Shown here: positions 1 through 63,486 of the stretch, piece after piece | Position numbering within the stretch: the stretch's first letter is position 1 | Layout of the letters: each line of letters starts with the position of its first letter | Source: Parcubacteria group bacterium Gr01-1014_38 | GTDB lineage: Bacteria; Patescibacteriota; Andersenbacteria; UBA10190; CAIZMI01 | Length of the DNA stretch: 64,000 nucleotides | NCBI GenBank assembly: GCA_007376145.1 | Contig: VMFP01000004.1 | Span: forward strand, 6,988-70,987 | Reading direction: 5' to 3' | Notes under the pieces: generated by a model | The model's input: the letters and a program-made list of their open reading frames with translations, nothing else | Databases searched by the model: none | What the model was told of the DNA's origin: nothing | Position numbers and translations under genes: made by a program

Positions 1-1308
1 ATAGTTGGTAACCCGCCCTTCATTCGATATCAATACCTCCCAAAGGATTTTCAGCAAAGAGCAGAGGAAGTTTTTGAAAATTTGGATTTACCATTTACGA
101 AACATGCCAACGCTTGGGTACCTTTTGTTTTAGCTTCTATGGCTCTACTGCGCCCCGGTGGTCGTCTCGCAATGGTAGTGCCAGCCGAGATTATGCATAT
201 CACGCATGCTCAACCCCTAAGGTCTTATTTAGGAAAAGAATGCCGCAGACTAGTAATCGTTGATCCGGAGGAACTTTGGTTTAGCGATACACTTCAAGGC
301 GCTGTTCTTCTTCTTGCTGAAAAAAAAGGTAGTCCCGCAGACAAAGCGGAAGGTGTTGGTATTTACCCAGTTAAGCAAAAAGAATTTCTCAATACTGATC
401 CTGAAATTATTTTCTCTGCTCCTAAATCATTAAATGGCAGAACGATCGCTGGAAAATGGACTTATGCACTCTTGGATCGCTCTGCCCGTTCTTTGTTGGA
501 TAACCTATCTAAACATCCGAATGTGCATCATTTTAAGGATATTGCAGAAGTAGATGTTGGGATTGTTACAGGTGCAAATAACTATTTTCTCGTCTCCGAT
601 GAAACTGTGGAGGAATTCGGCTTATCAAAATGGGCTCATCCTATGTTCGGACGAAGCAAGCACTGCCCTGGAGTTATTTATGACGAGTATCAACACCGAA
701 TGAATAAAGAGGAGGGCAAGCCAGCAAATTTTATTTGGTTTTCGGATGATTCTGTGAGTAGATACGTTTCCGCTCAAAAATATATAGACTACGGAGAGGA
801 ACAAAATCTTCATACACGATATAAATGCCGAGTTCGTGATCCTTGGTATTCAGTCCCCTCCGTCTACACTACGGAAATCGGGATGCTCAAAAGATCGCAC
901 GATGCGCCAAGACTCATACTCAATAAAATTGGAGCTTTTACTACTGATACGGCTTACCGAATTAGTGCTCACGGCGTGGCTAATAAGCGCCTAGTGGGAT
1001 CTTTTATTAACTCTTTAACGGCACTAAGCGCTGAACTCGAGGGACGTCATTATGGAGGTGGAGTATTAGAGTTAGTGCCGTCCGAAATTGAGAAACTACT
1101 CATCCCATTACCGGAATTAGCAGTGAATCTTACAGAACTGGACAAGGATGTTAAAACTTTACCGATGGTGGATGTTTTAGAGCAACAGGATAAGAAAATT
1201 TTAAGCAGCTTAGGGCTGACAAAATCTGAGCAGAATCTACTAGTAAATAACTGGCAAAGACTCCACGACAGACGCCAGAGGGTTTCGAGCGATTCCGAAA
1301 TCGCTTAG
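1..1308 (+). CDS. N6-adenine DNA methyltransferase (gamma-class, Eco57I/TaqI-like), 5' partial at window edge
   Basis: Reading frame is open from nt 1 and translates IVGNPPF (motif IV NPPF) followed by about 430 aa consistent with a target-recognition region. Codon usage is AT-rich relative to the rest of the window. The 3' end overlaps the convergent PLD nuclease gene by 4 nt. Confidence 0.7.
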   Translation: MVGNPPFIRYQYLPKDFQQRAEEVFENLDLPFTKHANAWVPFVLASMALLRPGGRLAMVVPAEIMHITHAQPLRSYLGKECRRLVIVDPEELWFSDTLQGAVLLLAEKKGSPADKAEGVGIYPVKQKEFLNTDPEIIFSAPKSLNGRTIAGKWTYALLDRSARSLLDNLSKHPNVHHFKDIAEVDVGIVTGANNYFLVSDETVEEFGLSKWAHPMFGRSKHCPGVIYDEYQHRMNKEEGKPANFIWFSDDSVSRYVSAQKYIDYGEEQNLHTRYKCRVRDPWYSVPSVYTTEIGMLKRSHDAPRLILNKIGAFTTDTAYRISAHGVANKRLVGSFINSLTALSAELEGRHYGGGVLELVPSEIEKLLIPLPELAVNLTELDKDVKTLPMVDVLEQQDKKILSSLGLTKSEQNLLVNNWQRLHDRRQRVSSDSEIA

Positions 1309-32101: not shown

Positions 32102-33198
32102 GCGCCTGCTTTTTCAATCACCTCGGCAGTCTGTTCCGCCGCTCGGTCCCACGTGAAGTGAGACGCGCGTACGTGCCCCTTCGCAACCATGTCCTGCCGG
32201 AGTGAGGAATCGCGGAGAATACGGAGGATCGCGCTCGCCATCGCCGACGGATCCGAGGGATCAACAAGAACCGCCGCATTGCCGACAACCTCTGGAAGCG
32301 AGGAAGTGTTCGAAGTAATCACCGGCGTTCCGGCCGCCATTGCTTCTAACACTGGCATACCGAAGCCCTCCGAGAAACTCGGGAGCACAAAGGCAGCAGC
32401 CATGGAGTACAAAGCTGCAAGATCGTCACGTGGAACACGTCGGAGAAGATGAATCGAATTTCGAACGGACGACGTTTCAATCCGAGCGAGAATCTGTGTT
32501 TCTTTCCACTCCCCGCCACCCGCGAAGACGAGATGCACGGCAGGCTCCGAGCGCTTCAGTTCCTCGAACGCAGTGATGAGACCAACAATGTTTTTCCGGG
32601 GTTGGAGCGCCCCAACAAACAACACATATCGCTCAGGAAGCTGGTATCGCTCCCGAATCCCTTCCCTTTCCTCGGCATTCTGAAATTGCTCTTGCGCCAC
32701 TCCGTGATGCACCACGGTGATGTCGGTCGGGGAGCGTCCATACGTACTCACTACATCGTCCTTCGTGTACTGCGAGACGGCGATGAGCTGGGTCGCGTTT
32801 CGCACCGCGTGCCGCGTGAAAAAAAGGAGGAGTGCGCGGTTCGCAAGAGTGTATGTCGCTGGATAATGGATGAACTCGAGATCATGGACCACCGCGACCG
32901 TCTTCATCGTTCGCGGTCGTATGAGAGGCAGCATCTGAATCGGCATGAACAAGACATCCGGCCGATCGCGACGAAGTGCTGCGGCAAAGAATCGCTGCGT
33001 CCAAAACGGACTTCCCGGGACCACACGAATTTCACCTACGATCGTCACTCCACGTGGCGACGCTGGAAGATATGTCGTGACCTCGTGTCCGCGGTCGCGC
33101 AACAGGCGAGAAAGCCGCGGGAGAAGCTCTCCGGCATACACGCTCGGCCCCTCGAAGCGGTCCGCCGCGAGGTCCGAGCCATCAAGCGCAATCCGCAC
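32098..33198 (-). CDS. glycosyltransferase family 4
   Basis: GT4 C-terminal motifs (…PSFSEGFGMPVLEAMAAGTPVITS…). Likely start is GTG at 33198 (VRIALDGSDL…, the typical GT4 MRIALD start); the track's TTG at 33276 is upstream. Confidence 0.8.
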   Translation of the reverse strand: MRIALDGSDLAADRFEGPSVYAGELLPRLSRLLRDRGHEVTTYLPASPRGVTIVGEIRVVPGSPFWTQRFFAAALRRDRPDVLFMPIQMLPLIRPRTMKTVAVVHDLEFIHYPATYTLANRALLLFFTRHAVRNATQLIAVSQYTKDDVVSTYGRSPTDITVVHHGVAQEQFQNAEEREGIRERYQLPERYVLFVGALQPRKNIVGLITAFEELKRSEPAVHLVFAGGGEWKETQILARIETSSVRNSIHLLRRVPRDDLAALYSMAAAFVLPSFSEGFGMPVLEAMAAGTPVITSNTSSLPEVVGNAAVLVDPSDPSAMASAILRILRDSSLRQDMVAKGHVRASHFTWDRAAEQTAEVIEKAGA

Positions 33199-33217
33199 GC
33201 GACGCAGCCTAGGTGAG
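33179..33217. repeat. direct repeat copy 1 (GT4 start region: CCATCAAGCGCAATCCGCACGCGA-N2-NAGCCTAGGNGAG)
   Basis: 39-nt segment spanning the GT4 GTG start; it recurs at 34051-34089 (3 mismatches), and its 21-nt core recurs at 35676-35696. Confidence 0.85.
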
Positions 33218-33320
33218 TTTCTTCCTTTTGACAACGGCTCTATGTGTTGAATGGGTTGAACGGGCCGAGCAACCAATTGACAAAATCCTGTCCGGCAGAT
33301 ATACTGAAAGCACTAAACGT

Positions 33321-33987: not shown

Positions 33988-34050
33988 GCCGAGAAGTGTA
34001 ACATTGCTTTGTATTTCGCGTGTGCTATGCCCGCTTCCCTAGATTGCAAC

Positions 34051-34089
34051 CCATCAAGCGCAATCCGCACGCGAGGTAGCCTAGGCGAG
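34051..34089. repeat. direct repeat copy 2 (GT4 start region)
   Basis: Matches copy 1 at 36 of 39 nt. Its in-frame GTG opens a 28-codon ORF (VRIALDGLQSREAGIAHAKYKAMLHFSA*) that is translationally coupled to the NYN gene. Confidence 0.85.
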
Positions 34090-34208
34090 GCTTGCTCTGT
34101 TGGCAACCGACGATCTTGACGTGGGCAGTCCTGCAATATATCCTCGGCGTGGTGTTGTCCTTTCTCACGCCGCAACAAGCGCGGCATAGTTCTCACGGAG
34201 TATGTCAC

Positions 34209-35171
34209 ATGCCTGACCCAAGCACGCAGCGACCACCACACCCTCTCCTAACCCGAGAACTGCGTCTGATCCGGACCTGGAAGGAGTGGAAAAAACTCTG
34301 GGACGAGGAGGTGCATCCGGAACGCCTGCTCGGCCTTCTCCACTTCGGCTTCAATGTCACAGAGTTTGACGCAGGAGAGTGGCCTGAACGAGTTCTCCTC
34401 TACCTTTCCATCGCAGATGGACATGCGTGGGAAATCTCGAAGCCAGGAACGCAGAAATATGAAATCTCCTGGTCAACCTTCGGAAAACCCACGACATGGT
34501 CAAAGGTGCGTCAGCTGATCGCCCAAAAAGCGTTCAAGGAACTCTGTCAGCACCTCTTCAAATACACCCGGTCGCATCATGATGAAGAACCGTCCTGGCT
34601 TCAGCCACTCACCCAGAACTCCTGCCAACTCTTGGATGCGGTACTCGCGTTCTTCCTCCTGCATGACACGCTCGAACCTCAGCTACGCAATCTCCCGCGA
34701 GACGACAAGAGTCATGAGTACGGACTGACCGTCTCCTTCCTCCTCAGCCTGTGTGACTTCGGATGGAAGCTTCGCACGCTCCGCGAGTATGGAGCCGATA
34801 TAGAAGTCGCGGAGAACCTCCGACAGCGCCGTCCGCAGTTCATTCGCGTACTTGCAGGTCTCAAAAGGCTCGATCTCGTGACGACGAAGAGCATGGAACT
34901 CGACGAGGCGGACTGCGACATGCTACGGAAGATCGCACTCGGCACGGAGCTCTACCTCCCCACCGAGCCGAACTGGGGAGAGAAGCACCGGCTTCCAAAA
35001 ACGCTGGAAGAAGCGGTCGCCGGCGGATCTTCTGCAGCCAGACTCCTACTCCTGCATAAGATAAAACTCCAGGAGAAAGCCCGCTTTGCGCAGCTTCGAA
35101 AACTCGCAGCCACGCAGGAAGATGCTTCTCTACAGATCGAACGACTAAAAACTTCGCAGACAAAGTCCTAA
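34209..35171 (+). CDS. hypothetical protein (320 aa), no recognisable domain
   Basis: ATG at 34209 preceded by GGAG. The frame is open from TTG 34092, which would add a hydrophobic N-terminus. Followed by a terminator. Confidence 0.55.
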   Translation: MPDPSTQRPPHPLLTRELRLIRTWKEWKKLWDEEVHPERLLGLLHFGFNVTEFDAGEWPERVLLYLSIADGHAWEISKPGTQKYEISWSTFGKPTTWSKVRQLIAQKAFKELCQHLFKYTRSHHDEEPSWLQPLTQNSCQLLDAVLAFFLLHDTLEPQLRNLPRDDKSHEYGLTVSFLLSLCDFGWKLRTLREYGADIEVAENLRQRRPQFIRVLAGLKRLDLVTTKSMELDEADCDMLRKIALGTELYLPTEPNWGEKHRLPKTLEEAVAGGSSAARLLLLHKIKLQEKARFAQLRKLAATQEDASLQIERLKTSQTKS

Positions 35172-35194
35172 ATGGAGGCACAAATGCAAATGCT

Positions 35195-35222
35195 CCCCGC
35201 CGCAATCGCGACGGGGTTTTTT
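35195..35222 (+). terminator. rho-independent terminator of the 320-aa gene
   Basis: CCCCGCCGC-AATC-GCGACGGGG followed by TTTTTT. Confidence 0.6.
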
Positions 35223-35257
35223 CTTCTCATCGTTGCAATCCTCTGCCCCCCAAAACA

Positions 35258-35297
35258 CGAGTACAAAAGAAACCGCCGCGAGGAAATCCTCGCGGCG
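35258..35297 (-). terminator. rho-independent terminator of the 96-aa minus-strand gene
   Basis: Perfect 10-bp stem CGCCGCGAGG-AAAT-CCTCGCGGCG, with a U-tract on the minus-strand RNA (plus-strand AAAAGAAA at 35264-35271). Confidence 0.55.
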
Positions 35298-35304
35298 TGG
35301 GGGT

Positions 35305-35595
35305 TCACGATTTGGGAAGTCTGACAATACGATTCCCCGCAATCACCCATGGGCTCGGGTCGAAGCGAACAACAAACGACGGGACGGGAGGCCAGGCGCG
35401 AGCAGGATCTTCTTCGATGACTGTCCCGGCAAAGTCCTGCTCGCACTCTTTCTCAACAACATGGGCACTCACCATTCGTATTCCCTTCTCCCCGTGAGGA
35501 TAGATGGCCCCAATCACCCATCCTTCCAGGAGAAGCTCGACGATAGGGGTGCCCGGGAGCACAGAGCGCTCCGCGATTCGGAAATCAATAGGCAT
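35305..35595 (-). CDS. hypothetical protein (96 aa)
   Basis: ORF flanked by a terminator and preceded by repeat copy 3 about 80 nt upstream. Confidence 0.4.
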   Translation of the reverse strand: MPIDFRIAERSVLPGTPIVELLLEGWVIGAIYPHGEKGIRMVSAHVVEKECEQDFAGTVIEEDPARAWPPVPSFVVRFDPSPWVIAGNRIVRLPKS

Positions 35596-35675
35596 CAGTC
35601 TCTCCTTTCAGTGTCTTTCGTTCTGGGGATCGAAGGTGAAATGAACAAGCTACACAAGACGCTCAAAAATCCGAA

Positions 35676-35696
35676 CCATCAAGCGCAATCCGCACG
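35676..35696. repeat. direct repeat copy 3 (21-nt core CCATCAAGCGCAATCCGCACG)
   Basis: Exact 21-nt match to the cores of copies 1 and 2. Encodes a mini-ORF VRIALDGSDF* on the minus strand. Confidence 0.8.
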
Positions 35697-35780
35697 GGCA
35701 CACTCTACGCAGAGCAGCCGTTCCTGACAAGGCACAGGAGAAGATGAAATATTCCTTCCGGCAATTCCTCATTTCCAAGA

Positions 35781-35804
35781 AAAGTGCTTTCATATAAGAG
35801 AGCA
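35781..35804. repeat. palindromic repeat A (AAAGTGCTTTCATATAAGAGAGCA) containing the TrpR-like GTG start
   Basis: Imperfect palindrome TGCTTTCAT/AAGAGAGCA. Matches 36211-36234 at 21 of 24 nt. Confidence 0.8.
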
Positions 35805-36206
35805 GTGAGCAGAACTTACCGAAGAAAACTTGATGCACCACGCGCTCTCACACTGATTGAGCAAACGTTCCACACGGCCTCCCGTCAGAAGAATTTTCGG
35901 CGCTTTCTTACGGAGTTCTTTACCGTGAACGAGCGCGACACTTTTGCTCAACGCCTCCGTATCGCCTGGTTTCTTCATGCGGGCCACAGCTTCCGACTTA
36001 TTCAAGACGAAACGGGTGCCTCGTTTCGTACCATTACGACTCTCGACCGCTGGCTGAAAAAGCAGAATCCGCGCTACCGGCGGATCATTCCGCTCCACAG
36101 ACATAGACACCGAAAGCACGCCGCCCAACGTTTTCCAGGAGACCGGCCATTGCCCGGGAGCATCAAAGCATTCACACGGAGTCTCCTCGGCACGGATATT
36201 CTCTAA
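35784..36206 (+). CDS. TrpR/YerC-YecD-like helix-turn-helix regulator
   Basis: …NERDTFAQRLRIAWFLHAGHSFRLIQDETGASFRTITTLDRWLKK… fits the TrpR-like HTH fold. GTG start lies inside the palindromic repeat. Confidence 0.55.
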   Translation: MLSYKRAVSRTYRRKLDAPRALTLIEQTFHTASRQKNFRRFLTEFFTVNERDTFAQRLRIAWFLHAGHSFRLIQDETGASFRTITTLDRWLKKQNPRYRRIIPLHRHRHRKHAAQRFPGDRPLPGSIKAFTRSLLGTDIL

Positions 36207-36210
36207 ATTC

Positions 36211-36234
36211 AAAGTGCTCTCTTACAAGAGAGCA
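36211..36234. repeat. palindromic repeat B (AAAGTGCTCTCTTACAAGAGAGCA)
   Basis: Perfect 9-bp arms TGCTCTCTT-AC-AAGAGAGCA. Re-encodes VLSYKRA, the first 7 codons of the TrpR-like gene. Confidence 0.8.
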
Positions 36235-36274
36235 CATTCAAGTTTTCTAATTCACGCTACGACCGTCGGGATCG

Positions 36275-37069
36275 CTATTTCCACGCCAGGATGGCCCGGA
36301 CGCTTCTTTCGTCTTTGAGCTTTCCGTTTGGGCTAAGTCCGCGTAGCATCCTCGCTAGTTCCTTTTCAAATATCTTTATCCTGTCTCCGAATAACTCTCT
36401 GCGAGCAAATGATGTGGAGTAGAGATTACCAATGATCTGGTGAATGTTCCGCTCCACGCGCTGTTTATAATTGTGAGTTTCAATCTTCGAAAACGAGCAT
36501 TCCATGATGATGTCCTCAAACCGACGTGTATCAGTGGGAAACGTCCCCGTGCCCGCACGGCGCTCCTCTCCGAGATACGTCTTAACGAGTTTCACGATTC
36601 CTTGCTGCCAGTCCTTATCGCTCTTCCAGATATCCTGGCGGCTCACCACCGCAAGTCCGCCACCCGGCATGAGAAGTTCATAAACCTTTGCAAGAACCTT
36701 TTTCTTCTCCATCCAATGGAGCGCGGTGCCGATCGTCACGAGTCTGAACGAGCCAGGACGGTCTACGTACTCCTCCGCCGTGCTCTTCACCCATGAGATA
36801 TCCCTCGCGCCCGCTTTCGCGGCGCGCTGCTTCCCCTCCTCGATCATATCCGCATCGGGCTCAACTGCCACCACTTCCTCAAAGTCCCTGCACAGCAGCA
36901 CGGCGAGTTCTCCCGTTCCCGTTCCTAAGTCGAGGAGTCGGCCAGTGCCGTCCAGGGAAAATTTCTTTCTGAGCAATTCAAAGAAGCTCTGTGGATACGG
37001 TACTCGATAACGGGCATAGTACCAGGCTGCCCCTCTGAAGAGTGTCTCGTCGTATACGCTCGTGCTCAT
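36275..37069 (-). CDS. class I SAM-dependent methyltransferase
   Basis: Motif I LDLGTGTGELAV and Methyltransf_11-like core. Confidence 0.85.
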   Translation of the reverse strand: MSTSVYDETLFRGAAWYYARYRVPYPQSFFELLRKKFSLDGTGRLLDLGTGTGELAVLLCRDFEEVVAVEPDADMIEEGKQRAAKAGARDISWVKSTAEEYVDRPGSFRLVTIGTALHWMEKKKVLAKVYELLMPGGGLAVVSRQDIWKSDKDWQQGIVKLVKTYLGEERRAGTGTFPTDTRRFEDIIMECSFSKIETHNYKQRVERNIHQIIGNLYSTSFARRELFGDRIKIFEKELARMLRGLSPNGKLKDERSVRAILAWK

Positions 37070-42461: not shown

Positions 42462-42595
42462 ATCCCGTTACATGTTTACCCGCCTCCCTGTCAGGCAGGA
42501 AACGTCCAGCCGGACGTTTCCTGCCCCTGCGCACAGAAAAGGCTTCGGACACCTGAGAGTCCCCTTTACTACCAACGTAAACATGTAACGGGATG
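42462..42595 (+). promoter_or_regulatory. structured 5' leader: 18-bp perfect inverted repeat enclosing a 14-bp GC hairpin, with the right arm overlapping the GT2 start codon
   Basis: ATCCCGTTACATGTTTAC (42462-42479) pairs perfectly with GTAAACATGTAACGGGAT (42577-42594), and the ATG is at 42593. Inner hairpin 42494-42525 (GGCAGGAAACGTCC-AGCC-GGACGTTTCCTGCC). Confidence 0.5.
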
Positions 42596-55736: not shown

Positions 55737-57739
55737 TCCGGCGACGGTGGCACTGGTGGGGACTCGGCTGGGGCTTCGTACTTATCGCCGCAGCGGGCGC
55801 ACTCGGGCAAGGAGCCGACGGCGTTTCTGTTTCTCTCCGCATTGAAGGAAGCACGACGACCGTGTTCGAGGGCACGGTGACCGCGACGCCCTGCACCATT
55901 ACCGATACCGCGGGGAAAGAGCACGCCCTGCCCGCAGTAGCAGCCTGTGCGCTCCAGAAAGCAGCGCAAGAGCGGAAATTCGCCACAAGCTTCCAGGATT
56001 TCGGATTCGGCTTGTTCCTGAAAAAGATTGCCGGAGACGATACGCCGCCTGATTTTTCCCGATCCTGGAACTTCTGGGTGAACGACGATCCCGCCAGCGT
56101 TGGATTGGATACCTACGCGGTGACACCGAATGACCGGATTCTCCTCGCCTTTGCTCCGTATCCCGGCGTTCCGCTGCGCGTCACGGCGCCGGAGAAAGCA
56201 ATACTCGGGACTTCTCTTCCTGTCCGGGTCGAAAAGCGCGTGGGGGACTTCGACGCGCAGTTCGTCTGGCACGGACGCTGGGAGCCCGCCGCCGGCGCAA
56301 CGCTTCACGTGGGTGACGCTGCGCATCTGGTCCCGAGCGACGGCACGGTCACCCTGACGTTTCCAGAGTCAGGATCGTTCCCACTCTCCGCCGATGGATC
56401 CGGATTCGTCCGGAGCGCTCGGAGGACACTCGCCGTGGCCGCGCCCTCGCCGAGTCCCACCCCGTCTCCTTCCCCCTCCCCGACGCCAACACCAGCACCG
56501 ACGCCAACGCCGACAGCCGCGCCAAGCCCGACGCCGAGTCCGCAACCGACACCGGTGCCCGATGTCTCTCCGGAGCAGCGGCGCGAGCGCGCTCGTTCCG
56601 CGCTCCGGTATCTGCGCAGTCAGCAGCGCGACGGAGGCGACATTGACGGCGACATCGTGACCGCGTGGAGCGCGATCGCGTTCGGGGCGAATGAAGAGCG
56701 CGGCAAGACAATTCGCAGCGATCAGTCTTCCCTTCTGGACGCGCTGACACGTGGCCGACTCATCTCCGCGACAGATATCGAGCGTCACATCCTCGCGGTC
56801 CGAGCAACCGGAGCAAATCCACGCTCGTTCAACGGCAGTGATCTCCTCCAGCTCCTGCGCCAGCGCGTTCGGAACGGACAGATCGGCGAAGAAACACTGG
56901 TGAATGACGATATCTTCGGCATTCTTGCGTTCGTTGCGGCGGGGGAACCGGCAAACGATGCAGACGTTCAGAGCGCCGTGCGCACTGTCCTTCAGTACCA
57001 GGTAGGAGATGGATCGTTCGGCGGCCTTGATTTGACCGCAGCGGCGATGCAATCCCTCCACGCGTATACCGTTCGCGGCGGAAGCCAGCAGGTAAGCACC
57101 GCCCTCGACCGGGCACGCGCGCACCTCCGCTCCCGCCAGGACCGCTTCGGCGGCTTCGGAGAAAATTCTGCGACGACTGCCTGGGCACTGCAAGCACTCG
57201 TCGCAGTTGGCGAGGATCCAGCGACCTGGCGTACCACGGATGGCGCCACGCCGTGGACAGCGCTTCTCCGATACCAAAACGCGGGCGGGGGCTTCGGGTG
57301 GAAAACACGCGAGGACGTTTCGCCGTTCATGACGGCCTATGCAGTGCCGGCACTGCTTGGTGTGCCGTGGCCTGTCACACTTCTCGGCATCGAGTCCGCT
57401 TTCGCAGCTCCGGTCTCTTCCCCGACCCCAACGCCCACGGCAGCGCCGCGGCCGCGCGTCGCGGGAACCGCTGCCGGAGCGCCATCAGCAGTCACCGCGA
57501 CGGTTGCATCGCCCGCCCCGTCTCGCGCGCTGTCGTCCATGACTAACCAGTCATCCGAGACGGCAACAGCACCGACGTCCGTGCCTACCGCTGACAGCGA
57601 AATGCTCCGCACACCTCCCGGATTTGTTCCCCTCGCCTCGGTTGACCGGCAGTTCGCGCTCACGCTGTTTGGCGCTGCGAATATCGGTGTCGGGCTTTCG
57701 GTGGCACGCATCATCAGCAAACTGCGAGGCAGCCTTTAG
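55733..57739 (+). CDS. two-domain surface protein: N-terminal DUF4430 + C-terminal prenyltransferase/terpene-cyclase-like alpha/alpha-toroid repeats, PT-rich linkers, C-terminal TM anchor
   Basis: N-terminal …FGFGLFLKKIAGDD…WNFWVNDDPASVGLDTYAVTPNDRILLAF. Repeats QQRDGGDI…, VGDGSFGG…, RQDRFGGFGENSATTAWALQAL, QNAGGGFGW. PSPTPSPSPSPTPTP linker. Terminal hydrophobic helix. Confidence 0.65.
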   Translation: MIRRRWHWWGLGWGFVLIAAAGALGQGADGVSVSLRIEGSTTTVFEGTVTATPCTITDTAGKEHALPAVAACALQKAAQERKFATSFQDFGFGLFLKKIAGDDTPPDFSRSWNFWVNDDPASVGLDTYAVTPNDRILLAFAPYPGVPLRVTAPEKAILGTSLPVRVEKRVGDFDAQFVWHGRWEPAAGATLHVGDAAHLVPSDGTVTLTFPESGSFPLSADGSGFVRSARRTLAVAAPSPSPTPSPSPSPTPTPAPTPTPTAAPSPTPSPQPTPVPDVSPEQRRERARSALRYLRSQQRDGGDIDGDIVTAWSAIAFGANEERGKTIRSDQSSLLDALTRGRLISATDIERHILAVRATGANPRSFNGSDLLQLLRQRVRNGQIGEETLVNDDIFGILAFVAAGEPANDADVQSAVRTVLQYQVGDGSFGGLDLTAAAMQSLHAYTVRGGSQQVSTALDRARAHLRSRQDRFGGFGENSATTAWALQALVAVGEDPATWRTTDGATPWTALLRYQNAGGGFGWKTREDVSPFMTAYAVPALLGVPWPVTLLGIESAFAAPVSSPTPTPTAAPRPRVAGTAAGAPSAVTATVASPAPSRALSSMTNQSSETATAPTSVPTADSEMLRTPPGFVPLASVDRQFALTLFGAANIGVGLSVARIISKLRGSL

Positions 57740-61001: not shown

Positions 61002-63486
61002 CGAACGCTTCTCGCCACAATCGTACCCCGAACACAACCGCAAATGCGAGTGGGAGCACTCCGGCGAGGAGTAGATGGAGAGGCGCGTACTGCACGCGCA
61101 GCGAAAACGGACCCTTCGATACTGGGATCGCGGAAAACATGAGATCGGCGCGGAGAACAGGAGCAGAGTTGTTGTTTATCCACGCACGGAAACCAGGATA
61201 GAAGAGTTGAGAGAGCACAATCACGCCGTCACGAGGAGCCGTGCCCGCGATGTTCCATGCGCCCGGATGCGTGGACTGGGCAACTATTTTGCTACGCTCC
61301 ACCGGCCCTTCTCGCCGAGGATACGCAGTGAAGAACGCGTTGCGCGCCGATACGCCCTCGGGCCCCGCGGGAATCGGCGGAAACGCGAAATTGGCGATAC
61401 GGGATGTTTTTGCCGACGGGTACACAAGCGCGATTTTTCGCGGATGAAAGGCAGGAATGCTACCGCCAAGCAATTCGGTAACGACGCGCTCCGCATCCGC
61501 CTCGCTCCCATCAAGCAGGACGGGGTCTGCAAAAAACGCGTATGGCGCGGCGGACGGAAGCGTGTGGATGCGCACGATACGATCCCACTCCTCCTTCCAT
61601 GCGCCGCCATTGACGGCATGCGCAAGGAAATTTCCGGAAATTTCGGAGTTGCCCGGCATTGGCTCCCACAGAATCTCTTTTTCCAGCGGAAGATCCAGGC
61701 GCCGCGTCGTGACGACGTGCGTTGCGTGCGCAAGTTCGAGCAGCGTGCGCGCGAACACGGAAAATGTTCCACTCCACTCGCTCCACACACGAGCGAACGG
61801 CACCGCAACACTTCCCGGCATACCCCAAGCGAGTTCCGGCACGCCCACAACCTCCAATCCGGCGTGCGCGATGGCATCGTCAAAGCAGGGAGAAGGCCAC
61901 CGTCCATGATCGCCGATGCAGAACACGCGTCCGACATCCCCGTAGTCGCGCATGCGCGATGCAAGATACGCAATGTGCGGAAGACGACGCATATTTTCAA
62001 ACGTTTGGGTAGGTATAGAAAACCGGAGCGTCGGCTGGACGTTCGGATCATCGCTGCGGATGCCGCGAATAATGCCGGTGACACCCCAGAGCATCTCTGC
62101 GCCAAGCAGCATGCAGATGGTTGCCGTTGTCAGCAAAGCGGGCATGCGAGAAACCGTGGTAGGCGGCGACGGAAGTCGCGATGCGACGAACCTCCGCGCC
62201 TGATGCGCCATGCGGATCACCCATGCGGTGCCGATTGCGGAAAACAGCGCGCACGAGAAGAGCATCAGCACACCAAGCACGGGCCAATTCCCGGAAGGCG
62301 CCCAAAGCGGATGCAGCCGATGCAACGGACCGTAGGCAATGCCATGCGTGGCGACGTTGGCGAGAAATACGACAAGAACAAGATGCGCGCCGGGCCGGAC
62401 GGCATGTCGGAGCGTGCGTCGTTTGAGCGCAATCACGGCTCCAAGAAGCGCGAGAACAACGACGGCATCGCCGGGACTGAATGGAACACCGAAATGCGCC
62501 ACGGGTCCCTGCCTGGAAACAAACATGCGGCCCAGATCGTTCGGAAGCAGCGTGCGGAGAAACTCGCGCGCCGTAAGATCACGATCCCGCCATCCGTAAA
62601 TGCGGCCAAGACCGAATCGTGATCCCCCGGATTGCTGCGCAAAAAACTCCGACGCGGCAAGGTGCTCGGGCGCGGCGGTAAGAAATACCGACGCGACAAT
62701 AAGCGCGCCACCCGCGCAGATGCGACCGACCATGTTCCACTGCCGACGCAGTAACGCGCCGGCACAGGCCGCAACAAGAAACCAGACGACCACAAGCGTC
62801 ATCTGCGCAAACACCGTCGGCATGCTGATCGCCATAAACGCAAGAGGAATGCCGGCTGCCAGCGCGTCGGTGAACCGCATCGTGCGCAAAAAGCGGAGAA
62901 GCAATCCCCACGCAAGCGGAATCCACGCAAACCCGAAAACATAAATCGCGTGCACTTCGGGACTCAAGCGCCGGAACACCCACGGATTCCACACGAGCGC
63001 CACGCATCCGATCAGCACAGCAACGCGAGCAATACCCAACTCGCGCAACACCAGCGCGAGCGTCGCGGCCGCAAACGAGAGATGTACGAGCAGAAGAATG
63101 TTCACGCCGATATCCATGTCGCGAAACAACAGCAGCACGGATGTGAGTGGACTGAAGTATGCCGTGTAGGGATGCGCGAGCGCGGGGAGCCCGAGACTCA
63201 AATTCGAAAGCCACAACGGCGCGTGATGGGCGCGAAGAATGCTCACCCGGTAGAGCTCGAACCACGGTTTCGTCGTGATGTGGATGACCGCCTGCTGGAA
63301 TGTCTCCGTCAACGGAGAAAACAGTATGAGCATCAAGCCCCATGTCAGCGCGCCAATCAGAAGAAAAAAGGGCCACTCACGACGAATGCGCTCGCGAAAT
63401 GGTGCAAGCGCACATGCAAGCAGTACCCACGGCACCACCACCATGATGCCGAGGAACAGCCGATCAAGAACACTCGCGATCATCAT
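60982..63486 (-). CDS. YfhO-like large membrane protein (GT-C-type)
   Basis: 834 aa: N-terminal multi-TM block, a large extracytoplasmic domain, and a terminal TM helix, which is the YfhO-like topology. Confidence 0.55.
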   Translation of the reverse strand: MMIASVLDRLFLGIMVVVPWVLLACALAPFRERIRREWPFFLLIGALTWGLMLILFSPLTETFQQAVIHITTKPWFELYRVSILRAHHAPLWLSNLSLGLPALAHPYTAYFSPLTSVLLLFRDMDIGVNILLLVHLSFAAATLALVLRELGIARVAVLIGCVALVWNPWVFRRLSPEVHAIYVFGFAWIPLAWGLLLRFLRTMRFTDALAAGIPLAFMAISMPTVFAQMTLVVVWFLVAACAGALLRRQWNMVGRICAGGALIVASVFLTAAPEHLAASEFFAQQSGGSRFGLGRIYGWRDRDLTAREFLRTLLPNDLGRMFVSRQGPVAHFGVPFSPGDAVVVLALLGAVIALKRRTLRHAVRPGAHLVLVVFLANVATHGIAYGPLHRLHPLWAPSGNWPVLGVLMLFSCALFSAIGTAWVIRMAHQARRFVASRLPSPPTTVSRMPALLTTATICMLLGAEMLWGVTGIIRGIRSDDPNVQPTLRFSIPTQTFENMRRLPHIAYLASRMRDYGDVGRVFCIGDHGRWPSPCFDDAIAHAGLEVVGVPELAWGMPGSVAVPFARVWSEWSGTFSVFARTLLELAHATHVVTTRRLDLPLEKEILWEPMPGNSEISGNFLAHAVNGGAWKEEWDRIVRIHTLPSAAPYAFFADPVLLDGSEADAERVVTELLGGSIPAFHPRKIALVYPSAKTSRIANFAFPPIPAGPEGVSARNAFFTAYPRREGPVERSKIVAQSTHPGAWNIAGTAPRDGVIVLSQLFYPGFRAWINNNSAPVLRADLMFSAIPVSKGPFSLRVQYAPLHLLLAGVLPLAFAVVFGVRLWREAFASGSRQ

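Follow-up and report, generated by a model that had tools for sequence, protein, structure and literature searches.

The question raised by this locus is why a gene for a TrpR-like regulator should stand between two nearly identical palindromes, one at its start and one past its stop codon. We analysed the window, a stretch of 64,000 nucleotides, together with related loci, and comparison of these sequences indicates that the two repeats, copies A and B, are probably operators recognised by the TrpR-family repressor whose gene they flank. The repeats, the regulator gene and its immediate neighbours have the following coordinates in the window.

35781-35804: copy A, AAAGTGCTTTCATATAAGAGAGCA, a 24-mer repeat found by pattern search of the window
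35785-35804: 20-bp palindromic core of copy A, TGCTTTCATA-TAAGAGAGCA, with 8 of 10 pairs, at -20 to -1 of the conserved start, the putative main operator
36211-36234: copy B, AAAGTGCTCTCTTACAAGAGAGCA, a 24-mer repeat found by pattern search of the window
36211-36238: extended palindrome of copy B, AAAGTGCTCTCTT-AC-AAGAGAGCACATT, with 12 of 13 pairs, the inner 10 perfect
35805-36206, plus strand: gene of the TrpR-family regulator, 133 aa when read from the conserved GTG at 35805
35784-36206, plus strand: longest open reading frame (ORF) at the locus, identical to the public gene call, 140 aa, starting at GTG 35784
35784-35786, plus strand: in-frame GTG inside copy A, probably not the true start
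36214-36318, plus strand: ORF of 34 aa beginning within copy B, considered spurious
36275-37069, minus strand: convergent gene of a SAM-dependent methyltransferase (Pfam Methyltransf_25, E 1.6e-16), whose 3' end faces copy B
35670-35733, minus strand: decayed duplicate of the GT4 promoter and first codons, marking the ancestral divergent neighbour of the regulator

The bracketing repeats are real, conserved and not a product of chance. Copies A and B are identical at 21 of 24 positions and are, besides the reverse strand of copy B, the sole matches to the repeat at up to three mismatches in the window, while dinucleotide-preserving shuffles (n = 100) gave 0 such matches, which confirms the pair of repeats reported by the first-pass annotation. 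Both copies are palindromic, as had also been reported; only the 9-bp arms assigned to copy B proved too short, its core, GTGCTCTCTT-AC-AAGAGAGCAC, having 10 perfect pairs round a 2-nt centre. The two copies are also inverted repeats of one another and lie 430 bp apart from centre to centre, with copy B placed 5 nt past the regulator stop in a 68-nt gap that separates the convergent genes. A search for more copies, which had been suggested as a check, returned none elsewhere in the 64-kb window or in any of the related loci, both with patterns of up to three mismatches and with a 14/20 scan of the 20-mer core. An Rfam scan of 35000-37000 with E up to 1 gave 0 matches. The window scan for 20-bp palindromes found five in all against ~1.9 expected; three of these, distinct from A and B and with 9 of 10 pairs, are located at 42500-42519 (AAACGTCCAGCCGGACGTTT), 57339-57358 (ATGCAGTGCCGGCACTGCTT) and 61626-61645 (GGAAATTTCCGGAAATTTCG).

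The regulator was compared to protein families and structures. It matches Pfam PF01371 (Trp_repressor) over residues 25-102 with 57 bits (cut-off 27; E 2e-15), in agreement with its initial description as TrpR/YerC-like. Against TIGR02531 (YerC/YecD) it scores 41.5 bits, which is marginally below the family threshold of 42.2, with four relatives at 25-37 bits, and against TIGR01321 (the TrpR equivalog) it scores 24.4 bits, far under the cut-off of 67.25. Its best PDB match by sequence is 3KOR, a TrpR-like protein (E 2.4e-7). An AlphaFold model, for which 19 subfamily sequences were used as input, has a pLDDT of ~90 across residues 11-90; its 41 best Foldseek PDB matches are without exception TrpR or TrpR-like, at a probability of 0.99-1.00 and E-values of only ~0.01-0.7, and it superposes with TrpR-type structures at an rmsd of 1.9 A over 73 residues. 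Overall, the regulator is a member of the TrpR superfamily, scoring above the Pfam threshold and having the all-helical HTH fold, and by the family cut-offs it fits neither TrpR proper nor HisR/YerC. A C-terminal extension of ~40 aa carries a conserved RPLPGSIK..F.RSL.GT motif and has low AlphaFold confidence; this segment (36079-36206, residues ~92-133) also contains an invariant YRR, a basic stretch and a short helix predicted at 120-127, and it may be an oligomerisation or partner-binding tail. The subfamily is rare, with ~10 full-length 50%-identity representatives at E ~1e-29 or better among 1.84 billion, and below these the scores drop sharply into the general TrpR-like family. One homologue is from "Parcubacteria group bacterium Gr01-1014_106", and the host of the regulator is a candidate-phyla-radiation (Parcubacteria-like) bacterium. 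No paralogues of the regulator were found in the window by tblastn.

The palindromes were then compared across 12 independent related loci (L005, L001, L002 and L006-L014), whose proteins are 34-92% identical to that of the window; L004 was left out of the count as a duplicate of L001, and a genome scan and a metagenome contig scan yielded one additional locus apiece. The first-pass annotation had named loss of the repeats from relatives that keep the gene as evidence against its reading. Instead, the palindromes are kept: in 11 of the 12 loci the distance from the end of a 20-22 bp upstream palindrome to the start is 0-2 nt (42 nt in L008), and of the 11 loci whose 3' sequence is long enough, 10 have 1-4 copies of the same palindrome 0-250 nt past the stop, the exception being L011, which has no downstream copy in its 31-nt gap. 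The contig end of L013 falls within the apparent first six bases of a downstream copy. The clade consensus is cTGyTCTCnT-AT/AC-AnGAGArCAg, and the sequence differs among loci as follows: TGCTCTC..GAGAGCA in the window, L005 and L006; TGTTCTC..GAGAACA in L001 (full site TGTTCTCATATATGAGAACA); TGTTCT..AGAACA in L007 and L014; TGTTACCA..TGGTAACA in L008 (L008-type site TGTTACCATTGTTGGTAACA); TGTATCCG..CGGATACA in L009 (L009-type site TGTATCCGTATACGGATACA); T(G/A)CTTCC..GGAAG(C/T)A in L010; T(A/G)CTTCAG..CTGAAG in L012; and TGGTA(C/T)AG in L011 and L013.

Upstream and downstream copies resemble each other more closely within a locus (17.1 of 22 positions) than between loci (12.5 of 22; permutation p = 3e-5), and with one locus per motif class only 2 of 5040 permutations reach the observed upstream-downstream likeness. 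Independent evolution would not produce this within-locus excess, so the two copies are kept alike, either through a reader that they share or through gene conversion, and conversion between A and B could give a false impression of co-selection. The downstream arrays comprise four copies in L009 (1106-1362), three in L008 (3437-3626) and two in L014 (1982-2144), with a spacing of 71-95 bp in L008 and L009. Three of the four downstream copies in L009 are shortly preceded by the last codons of the gene (ATTACTGAAC), the repeat unit of L008 reaches ~15 nt beyond the palindrome on each side, and the arrays look like tandem duplications of the gene 3' end plus operator. The distance from A to B is ~425-490 bp in most loci and ~670 bp to distal copies, and a common helical phase is absent.

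According to the first-pass annotation, copy A holds the start codon of the regulator, and the public gene call likewise uses GTG 35784 because this codon opens the longest ORF. The related loci place the start just 3' of the palindrome. The nearest relative, L005 (92% identity), has CTG in place of GTG 35784; in L009 and L010 the palindrome contains in-frame stops, which lie between the 35784-equivalent and the conserved start; and L006, L007 and L010-L013 have no start codon at the 35784-equivalent. By comparison, GTG is found at the 35805-equivalent in the window, L005, L001, L002 and L009, an ATG stands immediately 3' of the palindrome in the seven loci L006, L007 and L010-L014, and the N-termini align as M-S/G/R-x-x when read from the conserved start. 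Since the start at 35784 is not kept in relatives while that at 35805 is, the true start is most likely GTG 35805, which would make copy A non-coding, and the gene start is corrected here to give a protein of 133 aa and not 140 aa. L002 has two upstream copies (1244-1265 and 1348-1369), of which the distal one, 104 nt further out, is a well-kept palindrome (GTGTTCTCCTCTAAGAGAACAC) and the one beside the conserved GTG is decayed, with four non-pairing positions; the gene call in L002 uses an ATG between the two copies, resulting in a 153-aa product.

The palindromes were also compared with the recognition helix of the regulator. The residues of TrpR that contact DNA are Arg69, Ile79, Ala80, Thr81, Thr83 and Arg84 (PMC9413887), and hhalign placed the ..GAS-x-x-T-I.. 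segment of the subfamily on TrpR G78-I79-A80-T81-I82. The position aligned with Arg69 is nearly invariant in the subfamily and the one aligned with Thr81 is invariant, whereas the two positions aligned with Ile79-Ala80 are variable and co-vary with the palindrome, in the following combinations of helix residues and palindrome.

FR, LR or LQ: TGYTCT
FG: TGTTACC
TK: TGTATCC
PK: TRCTTCC
PN: TGGTAYAG, in two loci with unlike neighbours
TA: TRCTTCAG

L014, which was picked for its L007-like LQ helix, carries TGTTCT..AGAACA once at the start and twice downstream, a weak check as the half-site is common to the FR/LR loci.

The reading of the palindromes as operators, with autoregulation of the enclosed gene, is well supported by these comparisons, since the palindrome is kept at the gene start and co-varies with both the downstream copy and the recognition helix. 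The proposal in the first-pass annotation of a plausible autoregulatory operator for the HTH protein is thus strengthened by comparative evidence, namely the TrpR/HisR-type 20-bp layout, the conservation and the co-variation. From the position of copy A at -20 to -1 it follows that a dimer bound there would keep transcription of the regulator gene from initiating, a form of negative autoregulation also known for trpR and hisR. The fixed place of the palindrome directly against the start codon is the one observation that suggests that the regulator message is leaderless and that the operator covers the -10 region. The centres of the upstream copies read TATAAG, TATATG, TATACT or TACACT and lie ~6-7 nt before the start. 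A search for a -35 element spaced correctly relative to copy A was negative in the window, L001, L006, L010 and L014, and no convincing sigma-70 promoter was seen in register with copy A either; the sole promoter-like match, at 35724-35753, would instead put copy A inside a leader of ~45 nt. As leader RNA, copy A folds at -9.3 kcal/mol. The strict leaderless pattern (TTGnCA-16..18-TAnnnT-6..8-start) is present in the window at the GT4 gene only and not at the regulator. The missing Shine-Dalgarno (SD) motif at the regulator says nothing in this respect, because few genes in the genome have one (4 of 42 long ORFs with an SD of at least 5 nt when any start in the first 50 codons is allowed). No targets outside the regulator's own gene were found in the window and the related loci; a second target might be the divergent glycosyltransferase promoter, which in relatives lies beside copy A.

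The role of copy B is speculative because the site, past the stop codon and between convergent genes, has no promoter to control. As an operator, it would be a second (auxiliary) binding site, and looping with copy A would aid repression; alternatively, its occupancy may block polymerases that come from the glycan genes on the minus strand, which converge on the regulator. In the regulator mRNA, copy B would form a 3' hairpin. This dual use, as an auxiliary operator (by looping or as a roadblock) plus a 3' hairpin, is the least secure part of our interpretation. Copy B RNA folds at -14.9 kcal/mol on the plus strand (z -5.5) and at -15.4 on the minus strand (z -3.3), and homologous downstream copies fold at -13.6 to -19.7 kcal/mol. 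On the minus strand, copy B passes a terminator scan, and on the plus strand GUUUUCU follows 7 nt beyond the stem; a U-tract is absent at most homologous downstream copies. Arm mismatches at the B sites are 11 G-T vs 2 A-C (p = 0.02, post hoc), G-T being wobble-compatible on the plus strand, while those at the A sites are 6 G-T vs 3 A-C, without a wobble bias. Because the mismatches are biased towards G-T at B and not at A, they suggest selection at the RNA level on B, in that copy B may also be kept as a hairpin in the regulator mRNA. A more far-reaching version, which we consider rather unlikely, is that the regulator and its bracketing operators constitute a self-contained, ligand-switchable insulator lying antisense within a minus-strand glycan operon. 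Protein on the downstream copy or array would then halt polymerases from upstream glycan genes, the downstream element as RNA would terminate the regulator's own message, and protein and operator specificity would diversify fast against cross-talk, comparable to phage immunity and C-protein systems.

An alternative explanation for the palindromes is that they are RNA hairpins only, where A masks the start codon, B is an intrinsic and possibly bidirectional terminator, and the regulator binds neither. The stable folding of copy B on both strands, like that of the homologous downstream copies, the minus-strand match in the terminator scan, the skew of B mismatches to plus-strand G-U (11 vs 2) and the location of copy B at the place expected for a terminator are all consistent with this. 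However, pairing alone suffices for hairpins, yet the sequence of A and B is the same within a genome and different between genomes, and it follows the recognition helix. Moreover, the U-tract is missing at most downstream copies, the wobble bias is absent at the A sites, terminators would not usually come in arrays of 3-4 copies (L008, L009), and canonical GC-rich U-tract terminators are present elsewhere in the loci (e.g., L001 4908-4942). We therefore regard hairpins without protein binding as unlikely and retain the operators, to which a hairpin function of copy B may be added.

The surroundings of the gene bear on whether it could be part of an invertible element. In six syntenic loci (window, L001, L005, L006, L007 and L014), the regulator opposes a minus-strand glycan cluster and diverges from one GT4 gene, which is intact and directly divergent in L005, L006, L007 and L014. 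The convergent downstream neighbour is a glycosyltransferase gene in L001, L006 and L007, a methyltransferase gene in the window and L005 (followed by a GT4 gene in the window) and a gene without a domain call in L014, with Wzy_C, GT2 and Polysacc_synt genes further out in the cluster. Distant members adjoin NeuB, UDP-glucose dehydrogenase, TyrRS or ATP synthase genes. The glycan-gene link is frequent and not universal, and the sole constant is the bracketing of the regulator gene. No trp/aro genes were present among the called neighbours, which are glycosyltransferase, Wzy_C, NYN and methyltransferase genes. As each copy is an inverted repeat of the other and the 430-bp segment lies within a polysaccharide cluster (GT4, GT2, Wzy_C, Polysacc_synt) that is a typical inverton setting, the repeats might be the ends of an invertible or recombining segment acting as a phase-variation switch. 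This is very unlikely, given that the orientation of the gene relative to its flanks is constant in all six syntenic loci, that the genes called in L003, which reach from 10 kb upstream to 2.4 kb downstream of the regulator gene, include no recombinase, that every repeat is self-palindromic, that the downstream copy number ranges from 1 to 4, and that changes in the motif go along with changes in the HTH of the protein encoded between the repeats. An insertion sequence or mobile cassette was also considered and rejected: the enclosed protein has an HTH domain only, and GT4 synteny is kept in the same six loci.

Other elements were observed upstream of the regulator. GT4-start repeats occur three times on the minus strand (33173-33235, 34045-34107 and 35670-35733) and consist of the GT4 promoter and the first seven codons, TTGTCA-17 nt-TAGGCT-7 nt-GTG CGG ATT GCG CTT GAT GG (MRIALDG); this leaderless geometry (TTGTCA-17-TAGGCT-7-GTG) is textbook and is conserved in L005, L006 and L014. 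Copies 2 and 3 are located ~60-75 nt upstream of an NYN gene and of a 96-aa ORF, respectively. L005 is without either inserted block, which leaves GT4 directly divergent from the regulator there. A terminator-like hairpin on the minus strand at 35274-35297 (CGCCGCGAGGATTTCCTCGCGGCG then GTTTCTTTTG) lies just past the 96-aa ORF (35305-35595), and the presence of such a strong hairpin directly after the ORF suggests that the latter is a real gene. A gene of ~320 aa without a Pfam match is found upstream of the regulator in the window (34092-35171), L001 (3296-4267) and L002 (198-1151) and is missing from L005, L006, L007 and L014, making it a variable companion gene.

It is also conceivable that another factor binds the palindromes and that their placement around the gene is incidental, as the sites are tied to the regulator by comparison only. 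Yet the copies are found only beside the regulator gene in every locus and follow the recognition helix of its product, and we consider a different reader highly improbable. As for copy B, the first-pass annotation had seen in it a second captured-start event. It had correctly reported that copy B repeats the first seven codons, VLSYKRA, followed by a short ORF. This 34-aa ORF runs antisense over the 3' end of the methyltransferase gene; the downstream copies of L001, L006, L007, L010 and L012 are without a start codon, and downstream copies in relatives begin with CTG or CTA and have no conserved ORF after them. The shared codons and the ORF merely follow from the repeat sequence itself. That copy B is a functionless duplicate of the gene 5' end, like the nearby GT4-start repeats, is scarcely credible, for although direct repeats stand on both sides of the gene, encode seven identical codons and have a separate family of duplicated gene starts within 2.6 kb, the pair persists, with changing sequence, in 12 loci and with proteins as little as 34% identical, a decaying remnant is unlikely to be the better palindrome, as B is, the repeat does not include the conserved start codon, and the downstream copies of relatives have neither start codons nor a conserved ORF.

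With the palindromes read as operators, the system can be set beside known TrpR-family regulators. TrpR and HisR (YerC) bind 20-bp palindromes that are lineage-specific in sequence, and hisR is autoregulated and preceded by its own site in 183 genomes (PMC9413887). Binding of HisR with histidine as co-repressor has been shown in vitro, and the reported motifs are TGTAcTnGTnnACnAgTACA for TrpR and, upstream of his genes, cacTTTAnnnnnnTAAAgtg for the HisR operator consensus or TGTAnTArnnnnyTnTTACA for its proteobacterial form (PMC9413887). Similar to E. coli TrpR, with which it has the fold and Pfam family in common, the window regulator is associated with 20-bp palindromes that have the outer TGT..ACA frame of the TrpR operator, and it keeps the residues aligned with Arg69 and Thr81 while varying those aligned with Ile79 and Ala80. 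The E. coli trpR operator also covers the regulator's own initiation region, as proposed here for copy A. Unlike E. coli TrpR, the window regulator has a C-terminal extension of ~40 aa with RPLPGSIK, no nearby trp genes, and extra palindrome copies past its stop codon.

HisR (YerC/YecD) is the closest family by sequence (TIGR02531 41.5 bits; 3KOR) and is similar in its 20-bp palindromic, lineage-specific operators and frequent autoregulation. However, its operator differs from the motif found here, TGYTCTCnTAnAnGAGArCA, which occurs only around the regulator gene; HisR is ~100 aa long without the C-terminal extension, its context is his genes whereas that of the regulator is glycan biosynthesis, and downstream operator copies are not described for it. 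The regulator system thus departs from both TrpR and HisR by its C-terminal extension, its context, the operator abutting the start and the operator copies past the stop. Repressors with auxiliary operators downstream of the promoter are known from lac, where O1 and O2 are ~400 bp apart, and from gal (OE-OI). The arrangement here likewise pairs a site at the promoter with a similar one a few hundred bp downstream, a distance compatible with looping; it differs in the protein family and in the position of the proposed auxiliary site, which follows the stop codon of the gene for the regulator itself.

Overall, a palindromic operator with autoregulation is a textbook mechanism, which is here extended to a poorly known bacterial group. 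Candidate-phyla-radiation bacteria cannot be grown alone, and hardly any of their pairs of transcription factor and operator are known. The ~12 natural protein-operator pairs, with two changing helix residues, provide a ready-made specificity series for the TrpR fold, and because its gene is found in surface-glycan clusters, the regulator may be relevant to the control of the cell surface in these episymbionts.
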